The position numbers and the translations under genes were made by a program. A stretch of 64,000 nucleotides of DNA from an uncultured Candidatus Saccharibacteria bacterium (GTDB taxonomy: Bacteria; Patescibacteriota; Minisyncoccia; Phycocordibacterales; JACOZG01): assembly GCA_964651115.1 (NCBI GenBank), contig CAZYXJ010000001.1:380243-444242 (forward strand), in the 5' to 3' direction. The notes under the pieces are model-generated. The model worked only from the letters and a program-made list of their open reading frames with translations, was not told the origin of the DNA and did not search any database. Positions 1,993 through 30,391 of the stretch are shown here, piece by piece. The stretch's first letter is position 1. The number at the start of each line of letters is the position of its first letter.

Positions 1993-2025
1993 TAAAGGAC
2001 AACAATCTTTACTGTGGATAACTAG

Positions 2026-5978: not shown

Positions 5979-7538
5979 ATGGTTTCCAAACTTCACTCGG
6001 CACAAGTTGTCGGCCTCTCGGCTAACCACATTATTGTTGAGGTTGATATTGCCAAGGGCCTCCACTCCTTTGCCATTGTTGGCCTACCCGACAAGGCCAT
6101 TGAAGAATCTAAAGATCGCATTAGCGCCGCGATCAAAAATTCGGGCTTTAAGTCTCCCCAAAAGAGCAACAAAAAAGTAATCGTTAGTCTCGCTCCGGCC
6201 GATCTAAAAAAAGAAGGGCCGGTTTTTGATTTAGCGATCGCAATGGCCTACCTGTTGGCCGGAAAAGAAATAAATTTTAACTCTGATCACCGTCTGATTG
6301 TAGGCGAGCTAGCCCTAGACGGAAGCGTCCGGGCAATTAAGGGCGCGCTGATGATTGCCCGCCTCGCCAAGAAGGCCGGCTTTCGCGAATTATATCTGCC
6401 CAGAGCTAACGCCGCCGAAGCCGCTTTGATCACCGATCTAACCGTCTACCCCGTAGACACACTCAGGCAGCTAGCTGATCATCTCTCGCCGCCCAATCCG
6501 ACGGACGAGCTAGAGCCACCCGTGCGACAAGAAATTATCCCGGCGCCCGCGACCAAGATCGTTTACGCCGAAGCTCATTACCCAAGCGACATGAGCGAGA
6601 TCCGCGGCCAAGAGACCGCTAAGCGGGGACTAGAGATCGCGGCGGCCGGCGGTCACAACGTGGCGATGTCTGGACCACCGGGAACCGGCAAAACGATGCT
6701 GGCTAAAGCCTTTACCTCCATCCTGCCACCGCTCTCGTTTAACGACATTTTAGAAGTGACGGGCATCCATTCGGCCGCTGGATTACTAGAAGAAACCTTA
6801 ATCACCGCGGCACCCTTCCGCTCACCTCATCACACCTCCTCCTATGTTTCGCTCGTCGGTGGCGGGGCCTGGCCTAAACCAGGCGAGATCACCTTGGCGC
6901 ATCGCGGCGTCTTATTTTTAGACGAATTCCCAGAATTTGAAAAACGAGTCATTGAGGCGCTCCGCCAGCCGCTCGAGGATCGAGTGATCAACGTCGCTCG
7001 AGCCCGAGGCAGTCTGAGCTTTCCGGCTGATTTTATTTTGATCGCGGCCATGAATCCTTGCCCCTGCGGCCACCGCGGCTCGCGCGGTCGGGAATGCGTC
7101 TGCTCACCAATGGCCCTAGCTCGTTATGGACGAAAAATTTCGGGACCAATTATTGATCGTATTGATCTGTGGCTAGAAGTCGGCCCAATTGATCACGAAA
7201 AATTAGCCGGGCCAACCCTGGGGGAAAGTTCGGCTAGTTTGCGAGCGCGAGTGGAAGGAGCGCGAGCCCGCCAGGCGGCGCGCCTGCGCGCCGCCGGCCG
7301 CGAAGCCCGGACCAACAGCCAACTAAACACCAAGGACTTACGCCTCTTGGCGCCTCTCTCGGAGAGTAGCACCAAACTGCTAAACGAGGCGGCCAAAAAA
7401 TTAGACCTTTCCGCTCGCGCCTATCATCGAATCATTAAACTAGCCCGGACCATCGCCGATTTGGCGGATGAGGCGGGGATTAAAGACGAACATCTCATCG
7501 AAGCTTTGCAATATCGCCCGCGAACTATTGCGGTCTAG
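5979..7538 (+). CDS. comM: YifB/ComM family Mg-chelatase-like AAA+ ATPase
   Basis: Lon-like N-domain; Walker A NVAMSGPPGTGKTM; Walker B LFLDEFPEF; Cys cluster CPCGHRGSRGRECVC; C-terminal Mg-chelatase ChlI region. Confidence 0.85.
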   Translation: MVSKLHSAQVVGLSANHIIVEVDIAKGLHSFAIVGLPDKAIEESKDRISAAIKNSGFKSPQKSNKKVIVSLAPADLKKEGPVFDLAIAMAYLLAGKEINFNSDHRLIVGELALDGSVRAIKGALMIARLAKKAGFRELYLPRANAAEAALITDLTVYPVDTLRQLADHLSPPNPTDELEPPVRQEIIPAPATKIVYAEAHYPSDMSEIRGQETAKRGLEIAAAGGHNVAMSGPPGTGKTMLAKAFTSILPPLSFNDILEVTGIHSAAGLLEETLITAAPFRSPHHTSSYVSLVGGGAWPKPGEITLAHRGVLFLDEFPEFEKRVIEALRQPLEDRVINVARARGSLSFPADFILIAAMNPCPCGHRGSRGRECVCSPMALARYGRKISGPIIDRIDLWLEVGPIDHEKLAGPTLGESSASLRARVEGARARQAARLRAAGREARTNSQLNTKDLRLLAPLSESSTKLLNEAAKKLDLSARAYHRIIKLARTIADLADEAGIKDEHLIEALQYRPRTIAV

Positions 7539-7619
7539 AAGAAAAATTTTTACAATAGTACACGGAAATCGATCATCGGGATCGCCATCGTCACTTCTTT
7601 CTTGAGAGGAGACTGCGCA

Positions 7620-7763
7620 ATGGAAAACAACCAGAGCGAATACTTGTTCCCAGGGTGCGAACCAATCGACCCACCCAAAGTCGTCCCACCAGAACAATCC
7701 CCGGAAACGACTGAAGCCGAGGAGCCCACCAAGGCGGCAGCCTCGGAATTCCCCAGCCAGTAA
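7620..7763 (+). CDS. small acidic Pro-rich ORF (47 aa), hypothetical
   Basis: ATG with AGGAG Shine-Dalgarno 8 nt upstream. Translates MENNQSEYLFPGCEPIDPPKVVPPEQSPETTEAEEPTKAAASEFPSQ and is followed by a CCCCCG...CGGGGG + T-run terminator. Not in the ORF track because it is under 60 aa. Confidence 0.3.
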   Translation: MENNQSEYLFPGCEPIDPPKVVPPEQSPETTEAEEPTKAAASEFPSQ

Positions 7764-7834
7764 GCAAAACTCAACCGCTCACCTTAGGGACCCCGATCCC
7801 CCGAAGACTTGCCAATCTCCGGGGGATTTTTTTA

Positions 7835-8899
7835 TTAAAACGGATTCTTCGCGCCGCGAATTTCGAAATGGAGGTGAGTGCCGGTCGAGCGGCCGGTATT
7901 ACCCATATAACCAATAACCTGGCCCTGCGTGACTCGCGCCCCCATCGCCACCGCGGTTGATTGGAGGTGAGCGTACAAAGTCTGAGTCCCATTGGAGTGG
8001 GAAATAACCACGTAATTACCATAGCCACCATTCCAACCACCCTCACGACTAATAATTACCTGCCCCGCGGCCGAAGCGAGAATTGGAGTCCCCGCTTTAG
8101 AAGCGAGGTCCACACCGTTATAACCGTGTAGGCCTTGAGTTTTTACTCCGCCCGCCAATGGCCGCAAATAATAGCCCGCGTAACTTGGTCCGGTACTGCC
8201 CTTAACCGGTGACTTGGCACCCGGCTTAGTCGTCGTCACTGGCGCCACCTCGCCATTAGGCACAATCACCACCTGACCAACCTTAACTTCGTCGCTTTCT
8301 AAGCCGTTAAATTGGGCGATTTCCGTCGCGTCACCCTTATATTTTTTAGCGATGCTGGCCAAAGTTTCTCCGCGCGCCACCGTATGACGGACACCAGAAA
8401 CTGGCAAAATAATCAAAATCTGACCTTCCTTAAGTGGCGTCTTGGCCGACATATCGTTAGCCCAAGCAATCGTGTTGACCGAGACGCCATACATCTCGGC
8501 GATTTGCGAAATAGAATCGCCAGCCCGCACCACATAGACACTAATCTCGTCGGTGGTGGGGGAATCATCAAGATCCGCCAAAGTACCTTCTGGGCCAGAT
8601 TCGGCCAAGAGAGCTGAGCCCGAAACAATAGTGTTGTCGCCACCACCCAAACCTCGTCCCGAACCCAAATTAACGCCCAAACTTGGCTCTAAACCAATCT
8701 TTTGGGAATTAACCGCGGCCAGATTAGACCCCGCTTCCACTCGAGCGGAAGAGATGACGTCAAACCAAGAAAAGAAACCGGCCTCAACTGGTCGGGGGGC
8801 AACCCCGCCGGCCAAGATCACCGCGGCTAAAATGGCAACAAAAACTGGCCCGAAACGTCGTGCCCTTGAGAAATCGCTATTAAATTGAGGTCGATCCAA
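7835..8899 (-). CDS. LysM-domain M23 family metallopeptidase (cell-wall endopeptidase)
   Basis: N-terminal TM; two LysM repeats (YVVRAGDSISQIAEMYGVS; HTVARGETLASIAKKYKGD); M23 motifs GVDLASKAGTPILASAAGQV and HLHFEIR. Confidence 0.85.
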   Translation of the reverse strand: MDRPQFNSDFSRARRFGPVFVAILAAVILAGGVAPRPVEAGFFSWFDVISSARVEAGSNLAAVNSQKIGLEPSLGVNLGSGRGLGGGDNTIVSGSALLAESGPEGTLADLDDSPTTDEISVYVVRAGDSISQIAEMYGVSVNTIAWANDMSAKTPLKEGQILIILPVSGVRHTVARGETLASIAKKYKGDATEIAQFNGLESDEVKVGQVVIVPNGEVAPVTTTKPGAKSPVKGSTGPSYAGYYLRPLAGGVKTQGLHGYNGVDLASKAGTPILASAAGQVIISREGGWNGGYGNYVVISHSNGTQTLYAHLQSTAVAMGARVTQGQVIGYMGNTGRSTGTHLHFEIRGAKNPF

Positions 8900-9045: not shown

Positions 9046-10971
9046 ATGGATCCTTTAGCTGGCCTTAATCCTTCGCAAACTACTGCCGCCGCGCACCAAA
9101 ACGGCCCACTGCTAGTGGTTGCCGGTGCGGGAGCCGGAAAAACGAAAACGGTCGCTCATCGCATCTGGAACCTAATCCACCACGGCGTGCCCCCCGAGGC
9201 GATTTTGGCCATCACCTTTACCAACAAAGCGGCCAGCGAAATGCGCGAACGAGTCCACCGCTTGGTCACAGCCGCGACCGGAGAAAATCGCCAGCCCTTC
9301 GTCTCGACCTTCCACGCGCTGGGAGTATTTATCATCCGAGAGAATGCCGCGCTTTTGGGATTAAGCAAATTTTTCTCAATCATCGATAAGGACGAAGCTC
9401 TGTCGGCCATTAAAAGTATTTTGAAGGAGCGCGGCCATGATCCAAAAACCGTCGAACCTAAAAAAGTTTTGAGCGCCATCTCACGCGCCAAAGGAGCGGG
9501 GATTACTCAAAGTAATTTTTCCGAGCGACACGTCGAAAGCTATTTTGGCGAAATTGTCTCGAGTGTTTGGCGCGCTTACGACTCACGACTCAAGGAGCAG
9601 GGCGCGCTCGACTTTGATGACCTGCTCCAAAAAACCGTCGAGCTCTGGAAAAATCATCCGGCCGTTTTGGAGCGCTACCAAAATCGCTGGCGCTATCTGC
9701 ACATCGACGAATATCAAGACACCAACAGCATCCAATATCAGATGGCGCGTCTTTTGGCCACGCGTCATCGCAACATCTGCGTCGTCGGCGACATTGATCA
9801 ATCAATTTATTCTTGGCGCGGCGCTGACTACAAAAATATTATGCGCTTCGAAGAAGATTACCCCGATGCCACCGTCGTCACCTTGGAACAAAATTATCGT
9901 TCGACCAAAACTATTCTGGCGGCGGCTAACGCGGTCATTAAAAAAAATCGCTCCCGTCGCGAAAAAAATCTTTTCACCGATAACGAAGACGGCGAATTGA
10001 TCAAATTGATTGTGGCTTTTGATGGCAACGACGAGGCCGCCAGGATCGCGAACGAAGCGAACACTCTCATCCGCGGCGGAACCAAAGCCAGCGACATCGC
10101 CGTGCTCTATCGAGCCAACTTCTTATCGCGCGCGCTGGAAGAAGCTTTTTTGCGCGCTGGCGTCCACTACCATGTTTTGGGCACCCGCTTTTTTGAACGG
10201 GCCGAAGTCAAAGATGTTTTAGCTTTCCTCAAAGCCGCGCTTAATCCGCAAGACATTGAGAGCACTAAGCGAATCATTAATGTGCCGGCCCGCGGCATCG
10301 GCAAAGTAACGCTGGCCAAATTATTTGCTCACGGGCCAGACTCCCTCGCCAAAGAAGTGCGGAAAAAAGTTAACGACTTCTACGAAACTATGGCCGACAT
10401 CAAGCGCGTCGCCGAACAAGAAAAACCATCAGTCACCATTAAATACATTGTTGAACGAAGCGGACTGGCCAACGCTCTGAAGGCCGGCGGTGATGACGAT
10501 CTCGAGCGTCTAGAAAACGTCCGCGAACTCGCCACCCTCGCGACTAAGTATGACGATCTCGGACCAGAGGAGGGGATTTGGAAACTTCTCACTGAGGCGG
10601 CGCTAATGTCGGATCAGGACGAATTAACTGAGGATCAAAAGGGTGTCCACTTGATGACCGTCCACGCCGCCAAGGGTCTAGAATTTGATTACGTTTTTGT
10701 AGCCGGATTAGAGCAAGACTTATTCCCTAGCGGACGATCGAAAAACGAAGATGCCGACCAGCGTGACGACGAGGAGGAGCGACGACTATTTTACGTGGCG
10801 GTGACGCGAGCCAAAAAACGACTCTACTTAACTTACGCGCAGATGCGCACGATCTATGGCCAGCGAATGATGACTTTGCCCTCAGAATTTATCGGCGACA
10901 TCGCGCCCGAATTACTGGAGGCCGAAGACGCCGAAGATCCATTTAAAAATTCTTATTTTATTGATTTTTAA
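9046..10971 (+). CDS. pcrA: UvrD/PcrA-family ATP-dependent DNA helicase
   Basis: Walker A AGAGAGKTKT; helicase motifs YLHIDEYQDTN, VVGDIDQSIY, QNYRS and the C-terminal VHAAKGLEFDYVFVAGLE motif. Confidence 0.85.
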   Translation: MDPLAGLNPSQTTAAAHQNGPLLVVAGAGAGKTKTVAHRIWNLIHHGVPPEAILAITFTNKAASEMRERVHRLVTAATGENRQPFVSTFHALGVFIIRENAALLGLSKFFSIIDKDEALSAIKSILKERGHDPKTVEPKKVLSAISRAKGAGITQSNFSERHVESYFGEIVSSVWRAYDSRLKEQGALDFDDLLQKTVELWKNHPAVLERYQNRWRYLHIDEYQDTNSIQYQMARLLATRHRNICVVGDIDQSIYSWRGADYKNIMRFEEDYPDATVVTLEQNYRSTKTILAAANAVIKKNRSRREKNLFTDNEDGELIKLIVAFDGNDEAARIANEANTLIRGGTKASDIAVLYRANFLSRALEEAFLRAGVHYHVLGTRFFERAEVKDVLAFLKAALNPQDIESTKRIINVPARGIGKVTLAKLFAHGPDSLAKEVRKKVNDFYETMADIKRVAEQEKPSVTIKYIVERSGLANALKAGGDDDLERLENVRELATLATKYDDLGPEEGIWKLLTEAALMSDQDELTEDQKGVHLMTVHAAKGLEFDYVFVAGLEQDLFPSGRSKNEDADQRDDEEERRLFYVAVTRAKKRLYLTYAQMRTIYGQRMMTLPSEFIGDIAPELLEAEDAEDPFKNSYFIDF

Positions 10972-10985
10972 TTGCTCGGATATAT

Positions 10986-11013
10986 TTGACTTAAAAATCA
11001 CCCGGCGTAAGAT
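10986..11013 (+). promoter_or_regulatory. predicted sigma70 promoter (TTGACT-N16-TAAGAT) for the 11041 gene
   Basis: -35/-10 hexamers at correct spacing, followed by AAAGGAGG Shine-Dalgarno and ATG. Confidence 0.45.
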
Positions 11014-11040
11014 GATGCTCAGACAAGAAAGGAGGCCGTT

Positions 11041-11472
11041 ATGGCCCAGATCATCGTTCGCCAACACTTTGGCAAGCAATCTCTAACTCCCCCTGTCGCC
11101 GCACTGGCATACGGAGCCATATCCAGGAGCATGGATGGATCGAGGGGTTATTGGTACCAAATCAAAAAACTGGTCATCGAACTTTCTTTTTTCCGCCCCA
11201 GCCTGGACGGACGAAAATCCATCCGCGTACCGGAAGGAGTCCTAGCGGTTAGTCTAACGATCAGCCTCCAGCACTCAGGCGTACGAGTGACCTCGCAGCG
11301 ATATTTAAATGGCCCGAACAACGTCACCGAACGCGACATCCAAGACGCCATCTCGTTCGCGTGGGAGATGTCCCTCAAGCAAGAACAAAAGTGTGCTAAT
11401 AGGAATAAAAAGGCCCAAGAAGAGATCCGGCAAACCATCTCCCATCTACAAGATCAAACCTGGTGCCCATGA
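11041..11472 (+). CDS. hypothetical protein (143 aa)
   Basis: Strong Shine-Dalgarno AAAGGAGG, own promoter and own terminator; no recognisable domain. Confidence 0.5.
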   Translation: MAQIIVRQHFGKQSLTPPVAALAYGAISRSMDGSRGYWYQIKKLVIELSFFRPSLDGRKSIRVPEGVLAVSLTISLQHSGVRVTSQRYLNGPNNVTERDIQDAISFAWEMSLKQEQKCANRNKKAQEEIRQTISHLQDQTWCP

Positions 11473-11478
11473 TCGCTC

Positions 11479-11518
11479 GCCCCAACTCTGGGGCTTTTTC
11501 TTTTTTCCAAAATTGACA
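11479..11518 (+). repeat. terminator/UP-element/-35 module copy 1 (GCCCCA-loop-TGGGGC hairpin, CTTTTTCTTTTTTCCAAAATTGACA)
   Basis: Hairpin and T-run immediately followed by AAAATTGACA. The same ~35-nt core recurs at 12061-12130, 14313-14380, 14682-14745 and 39268-39360. Confidence 0.6.
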
Positions 11519-11594
11519 AATTTTAAATATTAAGTAGTTTTAATGACGGAATCCGCGTTAAGTCAGAGACCACAAGCACACAAGAAGAATAACA

Positions 11595-12035
11595 GTGGAA
11601 CTGGCAAGATTGGTTGTCTATACTCTTTGGGGAAAAAATCCTCTAGCGGCTTACGAGCTCGTTAAGGGGGCGCACCAAATTCTGGGTGCCATCCCTGGCA
11701 CCAAAGTAGAAACCTTGGGGGTAGAGAATTCTGACCGGGCCGTAGCCGGGGCCGCCGGGAAAATCATCAAGATTACCCGTTGGCCAAGCAAGGCCGAGTT
11801 ACAGGTCTACGAGAATCATCCCAACCTCCGGCAGTGGTGCAAATATGTCTTACGAGGTTGGATGCTAAAAGGGAGTACCGCATCCGATCCCGCCACAGAA
11901 TTCATCGATTTCATTCTCTCGGCCAACAAAGCTGACCATCGAGAATGGGCCCGAGACCCGAATTACGAAGACTCCAAAGTGATCTGGGGCGGCGAGGAAG
12001 TTTGGCCTTGCCAAGTAATTCCTCCGCAACACTGA
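11595..12035 (+). CDS. Dabb-like (stress-responsive dimeric alpha+beta barrel) domain protein
   Basis: GTG start. The segment ITRWPSKAELQVYENHPNLRQWCKYVLRGWML resembles the Dabb signature (..EALQAYLAHPAH.AFVE..); weak call from memory. Confidence 0.4.
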   Translation: MELARLVVYTLWGKNPLAAYELVKGAHQILGAIPGTKVETLGVENSDRAVAGAAGKIIKITRWPSKAELQVYENHPNLRQWCKYVLRGWMLKGSTASDPATEFIDFILSANKADHREWARDPNYEDSKVIWGGEEVWPCQVIPPQH

Positions 12036-12060
12036 TCGGCAACCGTTACACACCCACCAA

Positions 12061-12130
12061 CCCCGACCGTCAGCCGACGATCGGGGTCTTTCTTTTCCAA
12101 AATTGACACCGCGCTCGGGGGGAGTAGGAT
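12061..12130 (+). repeat. terminator + promoter module copy 2 (TTGACA-N16-TAGGAT)
   Basis: CCCCGAccg...CGATCGGGG hairpin and T-run, then AAAATTGACACCGCGCTCGGGGGGAGTAGGATAG. Near-identical to the 14341-14382 copy through the -10 element. Confidence 0.6.
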
Positions 12131-12163
12131 AGTCCAAACAGGTCATCGAGAAAGGAGGCCACG

Positions 12164-12670
12164 ATGAAGATAACCTTCATCCAGACCGGCGGAACCTTCG
12201 ATAAGGATTACCCCGTCGGCAAAGCATACGAGTTTGTGATCGGTGATTCGGCCGTGCCAACAGTACTCACCCCAGTAAATCCCGCGTTCGAGTTCGAGGT
12301 CGTGACACTGCTTAAAAAGGACAGTAGCGATATTCGTAAACCGGATCGGGATAAGATCGTCCAAGCGTGCCGAAGTTGCAAGAATGATCGAATTATTGTG
12401 ACCCACGGCACGGACACGATGATCAAAACAGCAAAAGCGATCCAGGGGATTGAAAACAAGAGGATTGTGCTGACCGGCAGCACCAAGCCGCAACGGTTCA
12501 AGGAGACCGACGCCGATTTTAATCTCGGTTTTGCAATTGCCGCTGTGCAATTGATCAAACCCGGCGTGTATGTGGCAATGAACGGCCAAGTACACCATTG
12601 GTCTCGCTGCCTCAAAAACATGGAAACCGGGCAATTTGTAAAACATATCCCGGATCCACCATTCAAATAG
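12164..12670 (+). CDS. L-asparaginase N-terminal-domain-like protein (single domain, 168 aa)
   Basis: MKITFIQTGGTFDK (asparaginase TGGTIAG-type motif) and VTHGTDTM (hGTDTM motif); no C-terminal asparaginase domain. Shine-Dalgarno AAAGGAGG. Confidence 0.55.
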   Translation: MKITFIQTGGTFDKDYPVGKAYEFVIGDSAVPTVLTPVNPAFEFEVVTLLKKDSSDIRKPDRDKIVQACRSCKNDRIIVTHGTDTMIKTAKAIQGIENKRIVLTGSTKPQRFKETDADFNLGFAIAAVQLIKPGVYVAMNGQVHHWSRCLKNMETGQFVKHIPDPPFK

Positions 12671-12696
12671 AATGAACCAATCATCTGAAGCGCCGC

Positions 12697-12751
12697 GGCC
12701 ACGACTTGTCGTGGCCTTTTTCATTGACGCCAAGTTTTAGTGGAGTAGGAT
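12697..12751 (+). repeat. terminator (GGCCACGAC-ttg-TCGTGGCC + T-run) fused to promoter TTGACG-N16-TAGGAT
   Basis: Perfect 9-bp hairpin then TTTTTCATTGACGCCAAGTTTTAGTGGAGTAGGAT; the -10 context GAGTAGGAT is shared with module copy 2. Confidence 0.55.
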
Positions 12752-12768
12752 TTGATCATAAATATTTT

Positions 12769-13209
12769 ATGAGCGACGAGATCAATCGACCAAAAGTGGG
12801 AGTAGGGGTGATGATTATTAAAGATGGGAAAGTTTTGATGGCCAAACGCAAAGGATCGCACGGTGCAGGAGAATACGGCTTCCCCGGTGGCCACTTAGAA
12901 AATTTAGAGTCGTTTGAAGATTGTGCCGTCAGGGAAACGCGCGAGGAGTGTGGTATTGAAATAAAGAATATTAAATTTCTTTACGTCACCAACATTACCA
13001 AGTACGCCCCTAAACATTATGTTCACATTGGCGTGACGGCTGAATGGGCGAGCGGCGAACCAAAAACTTTGGAATCAGAAAAGGCCGAAGGGTGGCAATG
13101 GCACGATTTAAATAATTTACCCGAGGGCCCAACTTTCGAATTCTGCAAATTAGCTTTTGATGCCTACAAAACCGGCAAAGTTTATTACCCACTAATGAAA
13201 GCTGACTAA
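12769..13209 (+). CDS. Nudix hydrolase (MutT family)
   Basis: Nudix box GGHLENLESFEDCAVRETREECGIE (GX5EX7REUXEEXGU). Start placed at the ATG downstream of the predicted promoter; the track ORF begins at 12706. Confidence 0.8.
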   Translation: MSDEINRPKVGVGVMIIKDGKVLMAKRKGSHGAGEYGFPGGHLENLESFEDCAVRETREECGIEIKNIKFLYVTNITKYAPKHYVHIGVTAEWASGEPKTLESEKAEGWQWHDLNNLPEGPTFEFCKLAFDAYKTGKVYYPLMKAD

Positions 13210-13308
13210 AATACCGTTTGACTTTAACTAATTTTTGTGTTAGTTACAAAACAGAGCTCTTCGATAAGAGCCTAGAATAAAACACCTCTTTCAAGAAAGG
13301 AACGGTCT

Positions 13309-13803
13309 GTGGAACCTGCAAAATTCGTAAAAACACGCAAGTTCAAGATGCTGGTTGGAGTAGGAGGAGGAGTCTTCGTGCTCTCCTTCATCGTCTTTCT
13401 CGTTTGGTACGGCTTCTGGGTCAACTTTGTCGAGAACTACCAATACGGCTTCGTCTACGACAAGTTCAGCGGGGAAATCACCCCCCTGGATCACACCGGC
13501 TGGGTGGTGCGCAACCCCTGGCACTACAGCGTCCATTCGATCGACACCAGACCCTACCAGGTGTCGATCAGCGCCAACGAACGCGTTCTGAACGCGAAGC
13601 TTATCCGCTTCAACACCGAAGGCATCAAGACCTTTGTGGAGTGGCACGGACGGGCCGCCGGCGACGACACTTACAGCCTCAAAGAGATTCTGAAGTGCTA
13701 CGCCTTCGATCGTGATGAGGGCCGTGATTGCCCCTTCCTCACCGTCATCAGCGTGTTGGCGCCGAATCAGGCTGCCGGCCCCGTTGCCACTAAGGAGAAG
13801 TAA
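13309..13803 (+). CDS. hypothetical N-terminally anchored protein, paralog of the next gene
   Basis: N-terminal TM (MLVGVGGGVFVLSFIVFLVWYGFW). Shared motifs with the next ORF: ..SIDTRPYQVSI / ..RVDTRPMRVAV, NAKLIRF / SAKLIQF, EW..TVEGFRYW, CPFLTVI / YPFLRIL. GC-rich codon usage. Confidence 0.55.
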   Translation: MEPAKFVKTRKFKMLVGVGGGVFVLSFIVFLVWYGFWVNFVENYQYGFVYDKFSGEITPLDHTGWVVRNPWHYSVHSIDTRPYQVSISANERVLNAKLIRFNTEGIKTFVEWHGRAAGDDTYSLKEILKCYAFDRDEGRDCPFLTVISVLAPNQAAGPVATKEK

Positions 13804-14279
13804 TGCGGACTATCCAACCGGGGATCATCCTGAGTAAAGCCTGGCATAACCGCTGGGTGAAAAGGATCACGCCCGTACTCACTGGCGCCGTACTCTTCTA
13901 CCTGCTTTGCCTTAACCACAACGAGCCCACCCAAATCGGCATTGCTCGCAATCGAGTAAACGGTGCTATGTGGACTCAAAGAGGAGGCTGGCACCTGACG
14001 TCGCCCTGGGTTTCCGTGGCCCGCGTTGACACTCGTCCCATGAGAGTGGCGGTGAACTCGGCCGGACACGGTTACAGCGCCAAGCTGATCCAGTTTGCCC
14101 CTGAACACTGGCAAGAGTTCGTGACCGTAGAAGGCTTTCGCTATTGGTGGTGGGCCAACCGGTTCTCCTTCAACGGAGGGTACGACGAGGAGTACCGCGG
14201 AATGAGAGACATTCTCCGAGGCCATGCCTATGGAACCAAGTCATACCCGTTTCTGCGGATACTCAACGAGTACCAGTAG
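13803..14279 (+). CDS. hypothetical N-terminally anchored protein, paralog of the previous gene
   Basis: Start ATG overlaps the upstream stop (TAATG), implying translational coupling. N-terminal TM ITPVLTGAVLFYLLCL; paralogous motifs listed for the previous gene. Confidence 0.55.
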   Translation: MRTIQPGIILSKAWHNRWVKRITPVLTGAVLFYLLCLNHNEPTQIGIARNRVNGAMWTQRGGWHLTSPWVSVARVDTRPMRVAVNSAGHGYSAKLIQFAPEHWQEFVTVEGFRYWWWANRFSFNGGYDEEYRGMRDILRGHAYGTKSYPFLRILNEYQ

Positions 14280-14312
14280 AAACCACTCACCAACGACAAG
14301 TTCTCTTTCGCC

Positions 14313-14380
14313 CTGACGCACCAGCGCCGGGGCTTTTTCTTTTTTCAAAAATTGACACCGCGCTCGGGCGAGAGTAGGGT
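14313..14380 (+). repeat. terminator + promoter module copy 3 (TTGACA-N17-TAGGGT)
   Basis: GGGGCTTTTTCTTTTTTCAAAAATTGACACCGCGCTCGGGCGAGAGTAGGGTAG, then AGGAAGGA Shine-Dalgarno and ATG at 14415. Confidence 0.6.
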
Positions 14381-14414
14381 AGTTTTGGATCTATTTAACT
14401 TAGGAAGGACAAGA

Positions 14415-14642
14415 ATGGACCGAAAAACGATCACTAAGTTGCACAACGCCGCCAAGATAATTGAAGTGGACGGCGACGAAGGAGTCCAAGCGGCAACCAG
14501 AGTGGCAGGAGAAGAGGTGGCCATAGCTCTCCTCATCGCTCACTTGCGGCGAGCCAGCGGTTCGATGGAGACTTATCCGCCCAACCCGAACATCGAGCTG
14601 CAGGTGAACCGTCTGCTTGAGGGCAAGGGCTTGATTCCTTAA
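14415..14642 (+). CDS. hypothetical small protein (75 aa)
   Basis: ATG 7 nt after a GGAAGGA Shine-Dalgarno, downstream of module copy 3; the track ORF 14352..14642 is trimmed to this start. Confidence 0.45.
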   Translation: MDRKTITKLHNAAKIIEVDGDEGVQAATRVAGEEVAIALLIAHLRRASGSMETYPPNPNIELQVNRLLEGKGLIP

Positions 14643-14681
14643 CCGACCCGCGTCACCTCCAAAACAAAAAGTTTGCCCTTA

Positions 14682-14745
14682 GCTCCGCCCCGCGGAGCTT
14701 TTTTCTTTTTCAAAAATTGACACCAAGAAGAATCCGCATATTATT
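14682..14745 (+). repeat. terminator (GCTCCGC-ccc-GCGGAGC + T-run) + promoter module copy 4
   Basis: Perfect 7-bp hairpin, then TTTTTTCTTTTTCAAAAATTGACACC, with a -10-like ATTATT 17 nt downstream. Confidence 0.55.
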
Positions 14746-14769
14746 GGGATAATCTCAAGTTACCTCCAC

Positions 14770-15297
14770 ATGTTACAGCCAACAGAAATTCTAGCAGAAA
14801 TTAAAAGCCGGCCACCGCTTCAAAGAAAAAGCGCGGAGGAAAGCTATCGAGGAATAAAAGTTAATTGGAAACTTACGTTTAAGGACGCTCACCGAAGAAA
14901 TACCAACTTATTAATTCACGCCTGGCCTGAAAATAGTTTGTACCCAGATGTAGATTTCGAGGTAAATAAAGACGCCTACCCACATTTTAACATTTTACAT
15001 GACGGGGAGCTATTTTGGGTAAAGGGAAAAATAAGTGAATTAACTATGTATAAAATTCAATTAATAGACTGCGAGGTCAAATTTAGCGACGAATCGGAAT
15101 CCCAAAATGTTGAACAACCCTCTACAGGGAGCACTTTCGTAAATTCACAGATTCATTATGGAAATGGAGACAACGTTATTGGTAAAAAAACCATGGCCGT
15201 CGAAAGAAGTTTCTGGTCTAGTCTAGTAGGTCAGGTAATTGTAGGACTATCAGTTACTGCTATTGTCGCTATTTTTACTTATATTTTAAATAAGTGA
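14770..15297 (+). CDS. hypothetical C-terminally membrane-anchored protein, AT-rich (foreign-looking)
   Basis: C-terminal TM LVGQVIVGLSVTAIVAIFTYIL; by eye GC is roughly 38-40% versus about 50-55% in neighbours; no Shine-Dalgarno. Confidence 0.5.
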   Translation: MLQPTEILAEIKSRPPLQRKSAEESYRGIKVNWKLTFKDAHRRNTNLLIHAWPENSLYPDVDFEVNKDAYPHFNILHDGELFWVKGKISELTMYKIQLIDCEVKFSDESESQNVEQPSTGSTFVNSQIHYGNGDNVIGKKTMAVERSFWSSLVGQVIVGLSVTAIVAIFTYILNK

Positions 15298-16085
15298 TTA
15301 CTCGTCCTAAAAAATCACTCGGGCAAAATTGGCTCCGAAGCGAAGCGGCGAGAGCGGCGATTATTGAGGCGGCCGAGCTTGGCACTACTTCGCCCTCTGG
15401 GCTTCGAAGTACGACGACTAACGTCGTCGAGATTGGCCCCGGCGAAGGTTTTTTAACCGAAGCTCTACTGGCCACCGGCGCCACCGTCACCGCCATTGAG
15501 AAGGACGACCGCCTCATTGGCCTACTTTCCACCAAATTTTCCGCTCCACTCACGACCGGTCAGCTCAAGTTAATCCATGGCGACGCCCTCGATCAACCGC
15601 CACCAAGCGCGCCTTACAAAATCGTGGCTAATATACCTTATTATTTGACCGGGGAGATCTTGCGCCACTTCTTAACCCACTCCCATCAACCAACTCAGAT
15701 GGTCTTGATGCTCCAAAAAGAGGTGGCCGACCGGATTATTGCCCGGGATGGCAAAGAATCCTTACTCTCAATCTCCGTCAAAGCTTATGGCGAGCCAATT
15801 TATGTAAAAACTGTCCCGCGGGGCGCCTTTTCGCCCGTGCCCAACGTCGATTCGGCCATTCTTAACATTAAAAATATCTCTCGGGCTCGTCTAAAGAGGG
15901 AAGAGGAGTCTCGTTTTTGGGAAATTCTCCATTTAGGCTTCGCTCATAAACGTAAGTTAGTCTTAAAAAATCTGGGTTGTTCGACAGCCATCGCCGAGCT
16001 CTGTACAATTAGCCCCAAAGCCCGAGCAGAAAATCTAACCCTTAAACAATGGCTATGCCTAACGAAGCAACCGAACCTCCAGTAA
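15294..16085 (+). CDS. rsmA: 16S rRNA (adenine1518-N6/adenine1519-N6)-dimethyltransferase
   Basis: KsgA motifs SLGQNWL, VVEIGPGEGFLT, IVANIPYYLT. Confidence 0.85.
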   Translation: MITRPKKSLGQNWLRSEAARAAIIEAAELGTTSPSGLRSTTTNVVEIGPGEGFLTEALLATGATVTAIEKDDRLIGLLSTKFSAPLTTGQLKLIHGDALDQPPPSAPYKIVANIPYYLTGEILRHFLTHSHQPTQMVLMLQKEVADRIIARDGKESLLSISVKAYGEPIYVKTVPRGAFSPVPNVDSAILNIKNISRARLKREEESRFWEILHLGFAHKRKLVLKNLGCSTAIAELCTISPKARAENLTLKQWLCLTKQPNLQ

Positions 16086-16108
16086 AATTACCCGGCTCAG
16101 GCTGGTTT

Positions 16109-16639
16109 ATGGCCATGATTGGCCTGGCTCTGGTCGTTTTGGGACTAGCCCACTCCTTGACCTTATCGAACAACACCGCATCCGAAGCCCCGGGTCTAAC
16201 CAGCACCGCCAACCCATCCGCAATTGACGAAAATTCCACTTTACCGCTCAGCAAGGCCACTACTTCGAAAATTAAGATCAACAACTTAACCCTCGACGTC
16301 TTTTTGGCCGCTGATCCAGTGGCTCAAGCCCAAGGCCTGTCGGGGCGGCCAGCCCTCGGCCCACTCGAAGGGATGCTCTTTATCTTTAATCGCGACACCG
16401 AACCAAACTTCTGGATGAAAGATATGAACTTCGCCATCGACATCATCTGGATTGATCAAGCCGGCCGAGTTATTGCCATCGAACCCAATCTCACCCCCGA
16501 TACTTATCCCAACTATTTTGCTCCACCCGAACCAATCCGCTACGTCTTGGAAGTAAACGCGGGCTTTGCCGATACTCATCAGATTACACTGGGTAATTTT
16601 ATCCACTTTCTTGAGCCAGAAGTCGTGAACACTCAGTGA
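16109..16639 (+). CDS. DUF192 (COG1430) family protein with N-terminal signal/TM
   Basis: FIFNRDTEPNFWMKDMNFAIDIIWIDQAGRVIAIEP matches the DUF192 core; start taken at the internal ATG (MAMIGLALVVLG). Confidence 0.6.
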   Translation: MAMIGLALVVLGLAHSLTLSNNTASEAPGLTSTANPSAIDENSTLPLSKATTSKIKINNLTLDVFLAADPVAQAQGLSGRPALGPLEGMLFIFNRDTEPNFWMKDMNFAIDIIWIDQAGRVIAIEPNLTPDTYPNYFAPPEPIRYVLEVNAGFADTHQITLGNFIHFLEPEVVNTQ

Positions 16640-16662: not shown

Positions 16663-17520
16663 GTGAAGAGAAAAATATTTATTTTCGCGCTTGTCGCGAT
16701 TCTTGTTGTAGGTGGAGGAGTGATTTTCTTGTGGGTACTAGGAAACAAAACTCTCCAAGACCAAGAGCTCGCGGCTCAAGGTTTTAAAAAAATTGATCAG
16801 CCAGACTCAGACGGGGATAGTCTGGCTGATTGGGAAGAAGAATTGTGGGAAACCGATCCACAAAAACCCGACACCGATGGCGACGGCGCCAGCGACGGAG
16901 AAGAAATTAAAGCCCGTCGCGACCCGCGACGGGCTGGACCAGGTGACGAGATACAGACCGCAAAAGATAATTTAAATATTTTAATTTATCAGGCGCTTAA
17001 ATCTAAGGATAATGGATTAATTATCCCCGAGACACCACTAGCATCCCCATCAGTAAAACAAGTAAAAGTTACAACAACAAACGAACGAACTGCCGAGGAA
17101 GCAATTCAATACGCGAGGAAGTTCGTGGCCGCCACTGCCCCCTACTTGCAATACTCCGGACCCAACCCCGAAAAATCGCTGCTAGAAAAAATCGACAACG
17201 AGAAATCCTCAGCCACAGAAAACCTGACCAATTACGGTTACATGCTCGAGGGGGTGACCCAATCACTTGAAGACATAAGCACCCCAGAAGAAGTTAGTTC
17301 TCATCACATTAAACTAATAACTCAAATAAAAAAAATGGCTGTTTTAGTTCAAAATATGCTTGAAGCCGAAAAACAACCAATTATCGCCCTGCAAGCTGGC
17401 CAACAATTTCCGATTGAGCGAGCATACGTTAGCCAAGCAATTTTAGATATAAACCAATATCTGATTAGATATGGCGTTTCGTTAACACCGGAAATGCTTA
17501 GTGGGATTCTTCGATTTTAA
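16663..17520 (+). CDS. membrane-anchored protein with thrombospondin-type-3-like Ca-binding Asp repeats
   Basis: N-terminal TM; DSDGDSLADWEEE and DTDGDGASDGEE (DxDxDG) motifs; first gene of the T4SS-like cluster. Confidence 0.45.
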   Translation: MKRKIFIFALVAILVVGGGVIFLWVLGNKTLQDQELAAQGFKKIDQPDSDGDSLADWEEELWETDPQKPDTDGDGASDGEEIKARRDPRRAGPGDEIQTAKDNLNILIYQALKSKDNGLIIPETPLASPSVKQVKVTTTNERTAEEAIQYARKFVAATAPYLQYSGPNPEKSLLEKIDNEKSSATENLTNYGYMLEGVTQSLEDISTPEEVSSHHIKLITQIKKMAVLVQNMLEAEKQPIIALQAGQQFPIERAYVSQAILDINQYLIRYGVSLTPEMLSGILRF

Positions 17521-17523
17521 AAC

Positions 17524-20500
17524 ATGAAACTCGGATCAAATATAAAAAAAGCTAGCTCCGGAATGATATTTATTTGGATAATTTCCTGTTTGATTTTTGT
17601 GCCCATAATGGCCGCGGCTCAAAATAAGACCAGTGTTGACCAGCGACGTCAGCAAGATAGCCAAATTTGCCAAGCGGAAGCAGAGAATAACAGAAACTTT
17701 AACTCACTCCCTGGGGGACGTAAGCTGGCTGATTCTTTGGCCCTAGGACTAGCCGAAGGTTTTAATACGGTTTTGAAAAATACCCTAGAGACCAAGGTTC
17801 CCGCCATCATGTCGAGGCAGATCAGCCAAAAATTACCTGCTCTCATAAACGGAAACCTCCAGCGCCAACTTGCCCCCGCCATCAACAATCAAATTAGAAC
17901 AATGAGAAGCCGGGGGCTTTCTGACATTCAAATAAAACAAGAGTTGCAATCAATCATCGCTCAGGCAATTGAGGCCATCGTATCTGAAACAATCAACGCC
18001 CACGCGGGAACACTAACTCAGCAAGGGATCCAAACTGCTTTGCCACAAGAGCTAGCACGCCAAATGGGTGATCAAGTGCCAAGTATTTTGGAAGCTAGTG
18101 GATTTAATCGCCAGACTCAAGAGATGGTCGATCAACTAGTAAATCCAATTAACCAGCTTTTGCCCCTCGTTATCCAATTAATGACTCAGGTTCAAAATGT
18201 TGGCGACGTTCAACAAATTATTCAACAAATTTTCGCCCAAGCGGTACAAAAAATTATTACAGATGCAATAAGTAGCAAGAACCCAGAAATCGGCCCCCTA
18301 CTTGGATCAGAAATCACTATCTCCGACGCCGATCGTAAATTAATCGCGGAAAAAATTTCAACCGGAGTCGCCAGCACCACTCAGCAAACCCTTTATAAAT
18401 CAAGGAATTTAGTTAACCTGTCCAATGAAGTATCCCGACGCTATGCCTCACAACTGACCCCCTTATTAATCTCTCAACTCACCCCCCAAATATCTCAAGC
18501 CTTTAGAAATGGCCCCACCGGATCCTCATTAAACAACTCAATTAACAACATTCTAACGGGACCAGGGTTCGACTTGTCGCGCGGCATGTCTGGGGATTTT
18601 CTAATGCCGATAATGAACTCAATCGAAAAACCCCTGGCCGACGTTGTTCAAACCCAAGTAGCGTCGTGGACAAACAGCCTCCAAAGTCTTGAGCAAACAA
18701 ATCCTGCTTTGTTCGAAAGTTTAACTTTCGAACAATCCGATCTTTTGGGTGAATCGGCAACACTAGATGCGGAATTTGCTGATCGAGGAATGGGCGGTAG
18801 TTATGGTGGCGTAGAAAATGGCAACCAAGCGGCGGCCGAGGCTACAGTAACCGACCCGGAATTTGCTGATCGAGGAGTAGGTAATGTGGCCGCGGTAAGC
18901 GACGAAGCTGCTCAGGCCGTTAAAGGCAACGGATCAGAAATAACTTCAAACGCCCTAAGCGGAATGGGTTCAAAAATAAGTGATGCTTTTAAGGGTAGTC
19001 TCGCTAACGGTTTGGCGGGGGGTCTAGCTGGTCTGGTGGATAATGTGCCAGTGGTTGGTGGGCTACTCTCTGGTGTTGTTCGCCAAGTCACCCTACAAGC
19101 CATGCAACAAGTATTGGGGGTCGGTGTGGGTGCTGGAGTAGGCGGAGGAGCCACTGGTGGCGGTGGCGGTGGAATCCAGGGCGAAGCTAAAACCGGTTTA
19201 AAACTTGGCACGACTGTAGGCATACTACCCGTTAGTAGTCATCAATTTGCTGGCATGAGCCTGCTTCTCGACGCCATCTTTAACTTCTTGCACTTAGGAC
19301 TTACGGCCTCCAATGTAAACACCGGCGGTATTTTGGGTAACACTTCAACCAGCAATCAAAACGAAAAACAACAAATAACCATCGGTCAAGAAACTCAAGC
19401 TCTAGTAACCCAAATGTGCACTCTAGAAAAGCAGCTCAAAGGATCTCTTTACAACATGGAGGACGTTTTAACTAAACACAACCCAAACGCCAACAAATCA
19501 TCGCTCTTAAAACTCGTTGGAATGCTCAAAGGAGGGACAACCTACTTCTCCCAGTATTACGATGATGGTAGCAAAGGAGGAGTGGCCGCGGGCGACGGGA
19601 CCACTACGCGCAGTGGTCAATCGGGAGTGGCCCAGTTAGATAAAAACATCAAACAGGCCGGGCAAGATGAGAGCAACCTAGTCTTAACCACTGCCCAAAC
19701 CAGCCAAAATCCCCTGACCCAGGAGGCGATAGAACTATACCGCAGCAGTCGCGCGGATGAAAACGTCTTTGCTAGTTGGATCGCGCCCGAAGATTGTTCC
19801 AAGCTAAATAACCCAGGGTCACTTTCTTCTCAAGAAGCGTCTGACCTGGCGGTCGAATGTTCTAAACCAGCCAATAACAAGTTCGGACTGTTTACTCAAG
19901 TGAGACAGGGCGCCCTATCGGCGGAGGCGCGAGGCCAAGAAGATGCCCAAACCAAGTTTGTCGCCTATAGCGGAGTCAACGAAAAGAGATACTGCTCCGG
20001 AGGCTGGACCACCGACCCACTTGAAGCCGATCTGAGCGATTTAACACTACCTGGCGAAAACGGTGACATCCTTGGACAAACGCCAATTGGCGCACCACGG
20101 CAATATTGTAAAGAATGGACAACTCTAACCCCCGGATCAATCAACTATCTGTACATGTTTGAATTAATCGCTTCGATAATAAGAAAAATCGGCTCGGCTG
20201 ATTCCGTGGGAGAAGATGTGGCCAATAACTATGCGGTAGTACCAGAACGAATAGTGCAAAACCTGTCCACCAAACCAGAGGAGCAATTGTTTGACCCAAA
20301 TGATGATCCCTGCCCGGGAACAGATCCCTGCCCGGGAACTGGTTGGAATAAAAAACAGGTTTCTGAAGGATCAGCCCTGGAAGAGGCCTTCTCTCAAGGA
20401 CTCGATGAAGGTCTAGCAAACACCGTAGATAATCTTTCTAATGTTTTTGACACTATCAGCTACGACGCAATTAATTCTCCCACTAGTGGCACTGTTTTCC

Positions 20501-23383: not shown

Positions 23384-23386
23384 TTT

Positions 23387-24166: not shown

Positions 24167-24170
24167 AGAC

Positions 24171-24572
24171 ATGAACTTCCAAGTACCCCAATTTATCGAG
24201 GTCGAAGACAAAATTTTCGGCCCCTTTACCTTTAAACAATTCGTCTACTTGGCTGGTTCGGCTGGTGCCGCTTTTCTGATTTGGGTTTATATCCCGGTTC
24301 GCTTTGTTGCCTTAATTTTCGTCATTCCGGTTTTGATCTTAGGGCTCTTGCTAACCTTTTACCGAGTTAATAATCGCCCATTTGTTTCTATTTTGGAGGC
24401 CGCGGCCCGCTACGCTCTAACTCACAAACTTTATATCTGGCAAAGATCTAGTGCTCCCACTAAAACTAACGTCACCGCTCCGACGACCTCGGGTTTAAAA
24501 ATTCCCAAACTCTCTGACAGCAAATTAAAAGACCTCTCCTGGAGTCTAGATGTGAAAGAAAAAATCCAGTAA
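24171..24572 (+). CDS. PrgI/VirB3-like small two-TM protein
   Basis: EDKIFGPFTFKQFVYLAGSAGAAFLIW + second TM; immediately upstream of VirB4 as in MPF_FA systems. Confidence 0.5.
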   Translation: MNFQVPQFIEVEDKIFGPFTFKQFVYLAGSAGAAFLIWVYIPVRFVALIFVIPVLILGLLLTFYRVNNRPFVSILEAAARYALTHKLYIWQRSSAPTKTNVTAPTTSGLKIPKLSDSKLKDLSWSLDVKEKIQ

Positions 24573-24592
24573 CAATGGTACACTAATAGGCA

Positions 24593-25240: not shown

Positions 25241-25244
25241 ATTT

Positions 25245-28087: not shown

Positions 28088-28089
28088 CT

Positions 28090-28452: not shown

Positions 28453-28455
28453 ACC

Positions 28456-30385: not shown

Positions 30386-30391
30386 AGAGAT

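Follow-up and report, generated by a model that had tools for sequence, protein, structure and literature searches.

Among the closest described counterparts of the repeats analysed here are the promoter-early stem-loops (PeSLs) of T4-type phages (Arbiol et al. 2010, PMC2839356; Comeau et al. 2014, PMC4122927). Phage morons (summarised in PMC2839356) are prophage genes whose regulatory flanks are neither conserved repeats nor thought to drive mobility. In bacterial chromosomes, hotspots of horizontal gene transfer (HGT) have been described in which a core gene pair brackets unrelated accessory genes with fast turnover, without an integrase (Oliveira et al. 2017, PMC5635113). Integron gene-cassette arrays also combine a fixed site with small, variable cassettes that are separated by repeats containing hairpins. 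To our knowledge, the acquisition and expression of accessory genes in the ultra-small genomes of CPR/Patescibacteria are poorly understood, with few recognisable mobile elements and essentially no characterised promoter or terminator. In the 64-kb stretch of DNA analysed here (hereafter the window), we found repeated intergenic modules that, judged from their sequence, are probably (roughly 0.6) composite terminator/UP-like/promoter units, related by descent, which insulate and express accessory cassettes in a lineage-wide HGT hotspot.

All four modules lie inside a 4.3-kb island of eight small co-oriented genes (10974-15300, forward strand, as are the modules, promoters and terminators below) between uvrD (stop at 10971) and the conserved part of ksgA, where homology to the closest relative (L123) resumes at ~15309. 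The setting of the island is chromosomal and near oriC, and it adjoins a conserved ksgA/type-IV-secretion/oriC block. The initial annotation had placed four copies of a repeat at 11-15 kb, and our analysis bore this out with essentially unchanged coordinates: each copy (11479-11540, 12060-12130, 14310-14380 and 14681-14744) is intergenic and consists of a GC hairpin, a T-run, C(C/A)AAAA and TTGACA. Specifically, module 1 comprises a hairpin (11479-11494), TTTTTCTTTTTT (11495-11506), CCAAAA, the -35 TTGACA (11513-11518), a 16-nt spacer and the -10 TAGTTT (11535-11540), and stands before a 146-aa gene (11595-12035). Module 2 (hairpin 12060-12087, CTTTCTTTT, CCAAAA, -35 TTGACA 12103-12108, spacer CCGCGCTCGGGGGGAG, -10 TAGGAT 12125-12130) precedes an asparaginase-domain gene (12164-12670), and module 3 (hairpin 14310-14333, TTTTTCTTTTTT, CAAAAA, -35 TTGACA 14352-14357, spacer CCGCGCTCGGGCGAGAG, -10 TAGGGT 14375-14380) a 75-aa gene (14415-14642). 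Module 4 (hairpin 14681-14699, TTTTTCTTTTT, CAAAAA, -35 TTGACA 14717-14722, N16, -10 TATTAT 14739-14744) is followed by a 175-aa gene (14770-15297), the TGA of which overlaps the ksgA GTG start (15294). A compact junction of the same logic, overlooked earlier, precedes the NUDIX gene (12769-13209); it is shorter (12697-12751; hairpin 12697-12716, TTTTTCA, -35 TTGACG 12724-12729, N16, -10 TAGGAT 12746-12751) and matches the family profile weakly (E=0.25). The remaining genes differ from this pattern: the 143-aa gene (11041-11472) lies 3' of a first island promoter (10986-11013, TTGACT-N16-TAAGAT) located 15 nt past the uvrD stop without a preceding terminator, and a paralogous gene pair (13309-13803 and 13803-14279; 27% identity, E=3.5e-9) lies 3' of a promoter-like site (13218-13246, TTGACT-N17-TAGTTA) that was read from sequence and does not have the family T/A tract.

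The repeat family is real, and its frequency is far above chance. The 27-mer CTTTTTCTTTTTTCAAAAATTGACACC has three matches with up to 3 mismatches (0.00 expected), the 17-mer TTTCAAAAATTGACACC has four at the same threshold (0.31 expected; 0 of 100 shuffles reach 4), and the four exact occurrences of AAAATTGACA in the 64 kb are the four module sites. An assembly artefact can be dismissed, since all modules are spanned, at 100% identity, by four independent Logan assemblies. A fifth copy had also been proposed at 39268-39360, where TCAGAC stands in place of TTGACA, and this site is therefore not a full module. It has the hairpin end, TTTTTCTTTTTT and AAAAAT in common with the modules (39267-39316; 61% identity to copy 1, family-profile E=0.18), and a relative keeps its counterpart in the same form without a -35. 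The site, which lies between two PEP-CTERM-like genes, is a strong predicted terminator (dG -29) with a similar T/A tail and not a promoter module.

Terminator and promoter activity are predicted for the modules from these elements. The five island hairpins have folding energies of -11.7 to -18.8 kcal/mol (z -2.9 to -4.3; -3.0 to -4.3 for the four modules), lie 6-40 nt past stop codons and are directly followed by T5-12, which is the arrangement of intrinsic (Rho-independent) terminators (GC hairpin and U-rich tract after a stop codon). The module promoters read TTGACA-N16/17-TAGGAT/TAGGGT/TAGTTT/TATTAT and are located 30-60 nt 5' of gene starts, as in sigma70/SigA-type promoters (-35 TTGACA and -10 TAnnnT, 16-18 nt apart, upstream of a gene start). 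We also confirmed the three previously noted -10 contexts of the form GAGTAGG(A/G)T, spaced at 16-17 nt, for 12103, 12724 and 14352. Upstream of the -35, the modules carry A5 (-36 to -40) and T-runs (-42 to -53). This arrangement resembles the UP consensus of E. coli, an A/T tract at -38 to -59, but the module A-tract is offset from it by ~3 nt. In E. coli, rrnB P1 is a UP-element promoter. Both rrnB P1-type promoters and the modules have a T-tract and then an A-tract immediately 5' of a consensus -35; in the modules, unlike in rrnB P1, the T-tract has a second role as the U-tract of the predicted terminator that ends the gene before it. The T-run and A-tract are probably a UP-like A/T element for the module promoter.

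The island marks an insertion polymorphism. In the closest relative (L123, GCA_964444555.1), 4 nt separate the uvrD stop from the ksgA ATG and the block 10974-~15300 is missing; the two genomes align at 92.7% up to window position 10973 and again from 15429, with about 92-93% nucleotide identity in the left flank and 87% in the right. The initial annotation had suggested that the modules serve newly acquired genes, and the module-bearing genes are indeed absent from this relative. Across six lineages, the uvrD-ksgA slot holds 0, 1, 2, 7 or 8 genes while the outer synteny is conserved: it is empty in L155; L157 has one 71-aa gene there, L151 a 91-aa gene together with an IS200-like one, and L152-154 seven small genes. 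The slot is also filled in L150, which is 98% identical to the empty-site relative. The cargo is unrelated among the genomes compared (the window, L152, L151 and L137), and the same core pair encloses differing accessory content in several genomes, as in core-gene-flanked HGT hotspots. An analogous promoter lies immediately past the uvrD stop in L151, L152 and L157.

The modules are restricted to such variable slots. Searching ~200 kb of lineage DNA with a module profile (nhmmer) gave significant matches in variable slots only. Had the motif been the general promoter architecture of this organism, it would be expected before most genes; it occurs at 0 sites in the other ~60 kb of the window and at 0 in 39 kb of the relative, in a scan that covers a 64-kb window of a genome of at least 444 kb, elsewhere in which further copies, also at core genes, are possible. 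Exact TTGACA promoters are likewise concentrated in islands (4/6 in the window, P=2.8e-4; 6/6 in L152, P=1.4e-4). The repeat had been proposed as a genome-specific family, which does not hold, since sister lineages have their own variants at uvrD-ksgA and at a second variable slot. The L152 slot contains five hairpin/T-run/AAATTGACA/GAGTAGGAT modules that make up a separate family with genome-specific extras (hairpin GGCCGnCAGCACnCGCTGnCGGCC and CGCCGATAAAC), and L137 has two promoter modules, 42/46 nt identical into the leader, before small genes in the second variable slot.

It is possible, though rather unlikely, that the whole 4.3-kb island was transferred at once, either from a related donor or from a mobile element that escaped recognition, and that the module is simply the ordinary intergenic style of that source; the repeats would then carry no information on how the recipient handles cassettes. 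Relative to the closest genome, the island forms a single uninterrupted indel, a direct repeat (14/16) lies near its edges (10989-11004 and 15306-15321; 4/500 shuffles score equally), and its composition does not look foreign (GC 0.492 vs 0.505; typical tetranucleotide distance), as expected of a related donor; this composition also counts against the accessory-cassette reading. However, the left-hand sequence as far as the putative repeat shows no homology with the empty site, and L150 has one module half beside a different gene. No integrase, transposase or phage gene was found in the island, which had no match in phage, plasmid and viral collections, the sole PHROG match being the NUDIX domain. 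A donor with the module as its ordinary style was not seen either, because the core regions of five related lineages are without the module.

The similarity of the copies to one another extends into parts with no evident function, as the initial annotation had argued. Copies 2 and 3, which it had called near-identical, agree at 27/29 positions of TTTTC..GCGCTCGGG, a stretch that takes in the 11-nt spacer CCGCGCTCGGG; with one indel, their similarity runs on through GAGTAGGrTAGT. Copies 1 and 3 share 27/30 positions in the hairpin end and T-run, and the hairpin/T-run at 11477-11506 is 30/30 identical to positions 59-88 of L150, where the flanking genes are unrelated. Module 3 is a mosaic, with a terminator tail matching module 1 and a promoter matching module 2; in L152, one hairpin has its 5' arm in common with one neighbour and its 3' arm with a different one. 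Identity in non-functional parts argues for duplication or recombination and not for convergence alone. Pure functional convergence, in which the best terminator (GC stem, long U-tract) came to abut the best promoter (A-tract, TTGACA) independently at each junction of a compact genome, following the transcription consensus of the lineage without shared ancestry or recombination, is slightly less plausible to us than a block transfer. It would account for the hairpin stems differing among the four copies, with the functional parts alone common to all four, and for terminator-abutting-TTGACA junctions that we also saw in an unrelated CPR contig and in unrelated genomes. It would also fit the predicted -35 and -10 hexamers of the modules, which are the host consensus (the -10s upstream of tRNAs in this genome are TAGGAT, TAGACT and TAGAGT). 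Moreover, the TTTTCCAAAATTGACA core recurs in lineages that are only ~70% identical, and part of the similarity is therefore functional conservation and not recent duplication. Nonetheless, convergence leaves unexplained the identical spacer of copies 2 and 3, the match with L150 in a different context, the genome-specific non-functional inserts common to all L152 copies and the leader identity in L137, and other strong promoters in the window have no T/A tract.

A shared operator appears improbable, although it would be compatible with descent of the modules as terminator-promoter units. Here, the T-run/A-tract/-35/ACC and the GC-rich spacer of copies 2 and 3 would be the site of a regulator or a nucleoid-associated silencer that governs a co-regulated regulon. 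Conservation at positions that RNA polymerase does not need (CC after the -35, and the spacer) points in this direction, and xenogeneic silencers typically bind AT-rich tracts. Yet no regulator gene lies in or adjoining the island, the spacer is common to two copies only, and no palindromic operator-like symmetry was seen. An integron-like or other site-specific cassette system, with the T-run/A-tract core as the site of a tyrosine recombinase, is largely refuted and hardly credible. In its favour are the changing cargo of one chromosomal position across several lineages, hairpin-containing repeats between cassettes and a tyrosine recombinase gene 8 kb away (2026-2931); however, this gene, the only tyrosine recombinase of the window, is XerC/D-like (251 bits to XerD; 135 bits to integron integrase vs a cut-off of 265) and is also kept beside the empty site of the relative. 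In addition, the seven island intergenic regions contain no paired attC R''/R' cores (RYYYAAC / GTTRRRY), each cassette has its own promoter, and the hairpin stems are simple terminators. We also rejected a dispersed repeat of the REP/BIME/MITE type, given stems that differ between copies, no terminal inverted repeats or target-site duplications, and no copies in the 60 kb of the window beyond the island or in 39 kb of the relative.

If the modules are terminator-promoter units related by descent, the intrinsic terminator of each would end transcription of the upstream accessory gene, and the T-run and A-tract, 7-18 nt before a consensus housekeeping-sigma promoter (TTGACA, N16-17, TAGGAT-type -10), would aid that promoter. 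Modules would punctuate the 4.3-kb accessory array that accumulated in the uvrD/ksgA hotspot of this Patescibacteria (CPR, Parcubacteria-like) chromosome, and a module between genes would thereby make each inserted gene an insulated, self-expressed unit. With module 4, ksgA and the operon that follows would regain a promoter; in relatives, they would be read from uvrD. Descent of the copies would have run through duplication, through gene conversion or through homologous recombination of one module with another, and the modules probably serve as short portable homologies for the gain, loss and swap of cassettes as well, like PeSLs in T4-type phages. Recombination at the modules, or the mobilisation suggested by the initial annotation, is read from mosaic identity. 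The case for module-mediated recombination is circumstantial because the left edge of the island, like its outer edges generally, lies outside the modules, and because among the compared lineages we saw no polymorphism of cassette size whose two breakpoints both fell within modules. More tentatively, modules in Patescibacteria could be portable homology 'linkers', by which DNA from natural transformation is slotted, one self-expressing gene each, into a few fixed hotspots (uvrD-ksgA, yebC-ruvB).

The locus offers a concrete comparative case of an insertion hotspot beside the conserved ksgA/type-IV-secretion/oriC block and a candidate rule for how new genes at a hotspot are insulated and switched on. 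Saccharibacteria are now transformable (PMC10633639), and the modules are compact native terminator-promoter parts that may be of use as expression signals.

PeSLs and the modules have several features in common. Both are intergenic motifs of ≤100 bp that combine a stem-loop terminator with a strong sigma70-like promoter and an AT-rich tract upstream of the -35 (the composite motif as defined in PMC2839356), and both are repeated in hyperplastic regions that vary between relatives, where they flank non-essential ORFan genes differing between close relatives. Each cassette is transcriptionally insulated, as predicted here from its flanks. Unlike PeSLs, the modules reside in a CPR chromosome with no phage genes nearby and have no sequence homology to them, and we found neither residence in a T4-like phage or early promoter use nor matches to phage or viral DNA. 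PeSL recombination and mini-circles have been demonstrated experimentally, whereas recombination of the modules rests on mosaic identity. Like morons, the island genes have their own promoter and terminator and separate two genes that adjoin each other in a relative, but their flanks belong to a family of repeats, and the slot is chromosomal and not part of a prophage. The uvrD-ksgA pair behaves as the HGT hotspots of PMC5635113 do; a repeated terminator/promoter module between cargo genes is not part of that concept and is specific to the present locus. In contrast to integron arrays, which the island resembles in its overall layout, it has neither IntI nor attC cores, and promoters are borne by the cassettes instead of being supplied from Pc. 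In the linker reading, the modules may do on a chromosome, with no recombinase, what PeSL shuffling does in phages, and may be functionally analogous to integrons; if module-mediated recombination is true, PeSL-type modular shuffling would reach from phages to cellular chromosomes.

At four intergenic junctions between 11300 and 15000 (11479-11540, 12060-12130, 14310-14380, and 14681-14744; modules 1 to 4), the same elements occurred in the same order, namely a GC-rich hairpin, a long T-run with one C, C(C/A)AAAA, and TTGACA. The hairpins are stable (dG -11.7 to -18.8 kcal/mol, z about -3 to -4) and end 15-18 nt upstream of the -35 hexamer, and the promoters have canonical hexamer geometry: TTGACA-N16-TAGTTT (11513), TTGACA-N16-TAGGAT (12103), TTGACA-N17-TAGGGT (14352), and TTGACA-N16-TATTAT (14717). 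A compact junction at 12697-12751 follows the same logic (hairpin, TTTTTCA, TTGACG, N16, TAGGAT). Within the 64-kb window, the 27-mer of the initial annotation matched three times at ≤3 mismatches (0.00 expected), the 17-mer TTTCAAAAATTGACACC four times at the same threshold (0.31 expected), and exact AAAATTGACA was confined to the four module sites. A repeat search placed the modules in one 41-nt family (100, 88, and 68% identity) and aligned 12093-12119 with 14342-14368 at 96% identity. The module repeats are no assembly artefact: four separate sequencing runs yielded Logan contigs that are 100% identical to the window across 10581-16617. The repeat family that the initial annotation had proposed is real, with four copies confirmed and the compact variant added. 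Its fifth copy, at 39268-39360, could not be sustained as a module: only the hairpin end, TTTTTCTTTTTT, and AAAAAT are common to both, TCAGAC stands in place of TTGACA, the profile score against the family was E=0.18, and this -35-less form is kept in the closest relative (GCA_964444555.1). The site reads as a strong terminator (dG -29) whose tail resembles that of the modules, and it falls short of a full module.

The modules lie in an island of eight genes (10974 to ~15300) between the gene of a UvrD-type helicase (9046-10971) and that of the 16S rRNA dimethyltransferase KsgA/RsmA (15294-16085), whose closest named homologues are from 'Candidatus Vogelbacteria' and Patescibacteria (about 60% identity). 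The encoded proteins are small: two of 143 and 146 aa, one of 168 aa with an asparaginase domain, a NUDIX hydrolase of 146 aa, two paralogues of 164 and 158 aa (27% identity), and two of 75 and 175 aa. In GCA_964444555.1, the DNA is about 92-93% identical to the window up to 10973 and 87% from 15429 on, the ksgA ATG follows the uvrD stop codon by 4 nt, and the block with its eight genes and four modules is wholly missing; the 17-mer was absent from 39 kb of this relative even when 3 mismatches were allowed. The outer synteny (ChlI, LysM/M23 peptidase, UvrD, slot, KsgA, DUF192) is kept in five further lineages. Among these, the slot is empty in L155 and holds one 71-aa gene in L157, a 91-aa gene and an IS200-like Y1 transposase in L151, and seven small genes in L152-L154, while in L150 a different gene end lies upstream of a ksgA that is 98% identical to that of GCA_964444555.1, the empty-site relative. 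No similarity was found between the cargo proteins of the genomes compared (window, L152, L151, and the metagenomic locus L137). Since the slot content differs and the cargo is unrelated, the uvrD-ksgA junction is an insertion hotspot, and because two separate lineages have the slot empty, the simpler reading is that the window's lineage acquired the insertion. In L151 ('Ca. Vogelbacteria', 7287-8000), the hotspot transposase is of the IS200/IS605 type and is flanked by CCACTTGGAGGCTAAGCCTCCAAGTGG hairpins. A second indel separates the window (2014-2023) from its closest relative (L123 2636-3857), where a 1.2-kb stretch missing from the window sits between the genes of the CCA-adding enzyme and a XerC/D-like protein; it contains two small ORFs of 67 aa (plus strand) and 117 aa (minus strand) and no module.

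Downstream of ksgA, a TrbL/PrgI/TraC/VirB4-like cluster, rnpA, and dnaA agree with a published Patescibacteria arrangement in which the T4SS genes lie near oriC and KsgA belongs to the neighbourhood (PMC12102498). The T4SS-like cluster (TrbL_3, PrgI, TraC-like, VirB4-like P-loop ATPase; 17524-29679) lies directly 3' of ksgA/DUF192 and is kept in all relatives compared. The region 29663-33646 resembles a replication origin: minus-strand yidC and rnpA precede dnaA (31029-32393) and dnaN, and the cumulative GC skew minimum falls within it. About 27 kb of plus-strand genes to its left (uvrD, island, ksgA, T4SS-like cluster) point at this origin and would be head-on to replication if GC skew marks oriC. 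When window 16947-22583 was compared with L123 14443-19381, neither an 1118-aa protein (in the relative, 1002 aa) nor the N-terminal portion of TrbL_3 could be aligned except in 67% patches, with neighbours 86-93% identical; from this alignment, the 1118-aa protein looks fast-evolving and possibly surface-exposed.

Modules of the same logic, with the same -35 and -10, were detected in other lineages. Five island junctions of L152 carry the hairpin GGCCG(T/G)CAGCAC(C/T)CGCTG(A/C)CGGCC followed by TTTTCTTTTTCGCCGATAAACTTTT(T/C)CAAATTGACAGC, N, and G(G)AGTAGGAT, their genome-specific extras being the near-identical hairpin and an CGCCGATAAAC insert. Two of these hairpins differ by a compensatory pair (GTC..GAC vs GGC..GCC), and a third joins the 5' arm of one to the 3' arm of the other. 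A metagenome motif scan returned 17 loci, among which only L137 had BLAST similarity to the window (~70% identity to 36-43 kb); the others look like chance matches. L137 carries two promoter modules, identical at 42/46 nt (AAAATTGACAAAAAATACTTTnGGAGTAGGCyGGTAGATG...), that precede two small genes between yebC and ruvB, the slot that in the window holds PEP-CTERM-like genes and the 39268-39360 terminator. Because L137 has unrelated genes there, yebC-ruvB is a second variable slot. The window genes (38571-40023) encode two PEP-CTERM-like proteins with weak TIGR02595 matches, and PEP-CTERM is unusual for a CPR bacterium; in L137 (3660-4680), the two unrelated small genes come with the duplicated promoter modules. 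An nhmmer profile trained on four modules each from the window and L152 was run on about 200 kb of lineage DNA. Apart from these training sequences, which it matches by construction, its only hits were another L152 island junction and both L137 modules, with nothing at E<0.1 in core regions. In genome contigs other than those of the source genome, the motif TTTTCMAAAATTGACACC gave at least 119 single-copy matches, none of those listed being related to the window; these are chance matches.

Part of the module similarity is functional conservation, because the TTTTCCAAAATTGACA core is common to lineages that are only ~70% identical. Module hexamers also read as the host's own: window tRNA genes have TAGGAT, TAGACT, TAGAGT, or TATAAT boxes upstream. 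Consensus promoters with an exact TTGACA cluster in the islands (4/6 in the window, binomial P=2.8e-4; 6/6 in L152, P=1.4e-4), and other strong window promoters (38524, 40932, 58805, 62841) have no T/A tract. Scanning both strands of the whole window for TTGACN-N15-18-TAnnnT gave 13 sites, every one of them on the plus strand. (G)AG directly 5' of a TAGnnT -10 was seen at 12122-12130, 12743-12751, 14372-14380, and 58826-58834 and in L152 and L137 modules; these sites include island promoters, tRNA-Arg(tct), and sister lineages, and the (G)AG may be a lineage-specific extended -10 element. At -36 to -53 of the modules, the T-run and A5 resemble the E. coli UP consensus with an offset of ~3 nt.

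Other identities fall in parts with no known function. Copies 2 and 3 have the 11-nt spacer CCGCGCTCGGG in common and match at 27/29 over a wider segment, then at GAGTAGGrTAGT after one indel. Copies 1 and 3 have GGGCTTTTTCTTTTTTC in common (27/30 when the comparison runs on to two bases past the -35), and copy 3 is a mosaic of the tail of copy 1 and the promoter of copy 2. Hairpin and T-run at window 11477-11506 are identical to L150 at 30/30 nt with unrelated sequence on both sides, and the L152 copies have genome-specific inserts in common. Such identities point to modules that were duplicated or that underwent gene conversion or recombination with one another. The proposal that newly acquired genes carry promoter cassettes which were duplicated or recombine was largely upheld and extends to a lineage-wide hotspot; in the sequence examined, the motif does not stand before most genes, as strong promoters elsewhere are without the T/A tract.

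In the island, each gene or gene pair stands between putative signals, a promoter and mostly also a terminator. The first island promoter follows the uvrD stop at a distance of 15 nt, and no terminator comes between them, as in L151, L152, and L157. The end of the last island gene and the start of ksgA overlap (GTGA); module 4 would therefore provide a promoter to ksgA and the genes that follow, which the predicted upstream terminators would cut off from uvrD transcription. In each module, the hairpin and U-tract would end transcription, and the T-run with A5 may act as a UP-like element. The modules could also serve as substrates for homologous recombination, by which cassettes would be added, removed, or swapped. 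Saccharibacteria have been shown to be naturally competent and to replace genes by recombination (PMC10633639), and hotspots without mobile elements are known in other bacteria (PMC5635113); both fit this idea without proving it.

Several other origins were considered. A 14/16 direct repeat lies near the island edges (10989-11004, CTTAAAAATCACCCGG; 15306-15321, CTAAAAAATCACTCGG), with only 4/500 shuffles scoring equally; its right copy is 5' coding sequence of ksgA. It could suggest att-type ends, but the flank disagrees with a simple insertion/att model. Searches gave no sign of a phage or plasmid source: in viral contigs, two motif scans turned up only chance matches lacking hairpins, blastn with the island as query returned nothing from phages or plasmids, and in PHROGs and PADLOC the NUDIX domain alone was matched. 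The island's composition is host-like, not foreign, and an Rfam search found only tRNAs. The module does not travel with the asparaginase-domain gene, since the nearest homologue (contig L163, 61% identity) lies in an unrelated context without a module. An integron was rejected: no tyrosine recombinase occurs other than a XerC/D-like one that is also kept beside the empty site, attC cores are lacking, and the cassettes have their own promoters. REP/MITE features are absent.

In the literature, we found no description of such modules, or of the uvrD-ksgA hotspot, in CPR. The closest functional analogue is the promoter-early stem-loop (PeSL) of T4-type phages, a small composite cassette of a strong sigma70-like promoter, an AT-rich upstream region, and a stem-loop terminator, which recurs in hyperplastic regions, flanks ORFans, and recombines to give indels and mini-circles (PMC2839356, PMC4122927). 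The window modules, described here from sequence, resemble PeSLs in architecture and distribution but are chromosomal and unrelated in sequence. With phage morons they have in common the layout of a gene with its own promoter and terminator, but not the conserved flanks. By analogy, the modules are best described as PeSL/moron-like regulatory cassettes in a CPR chromosome.
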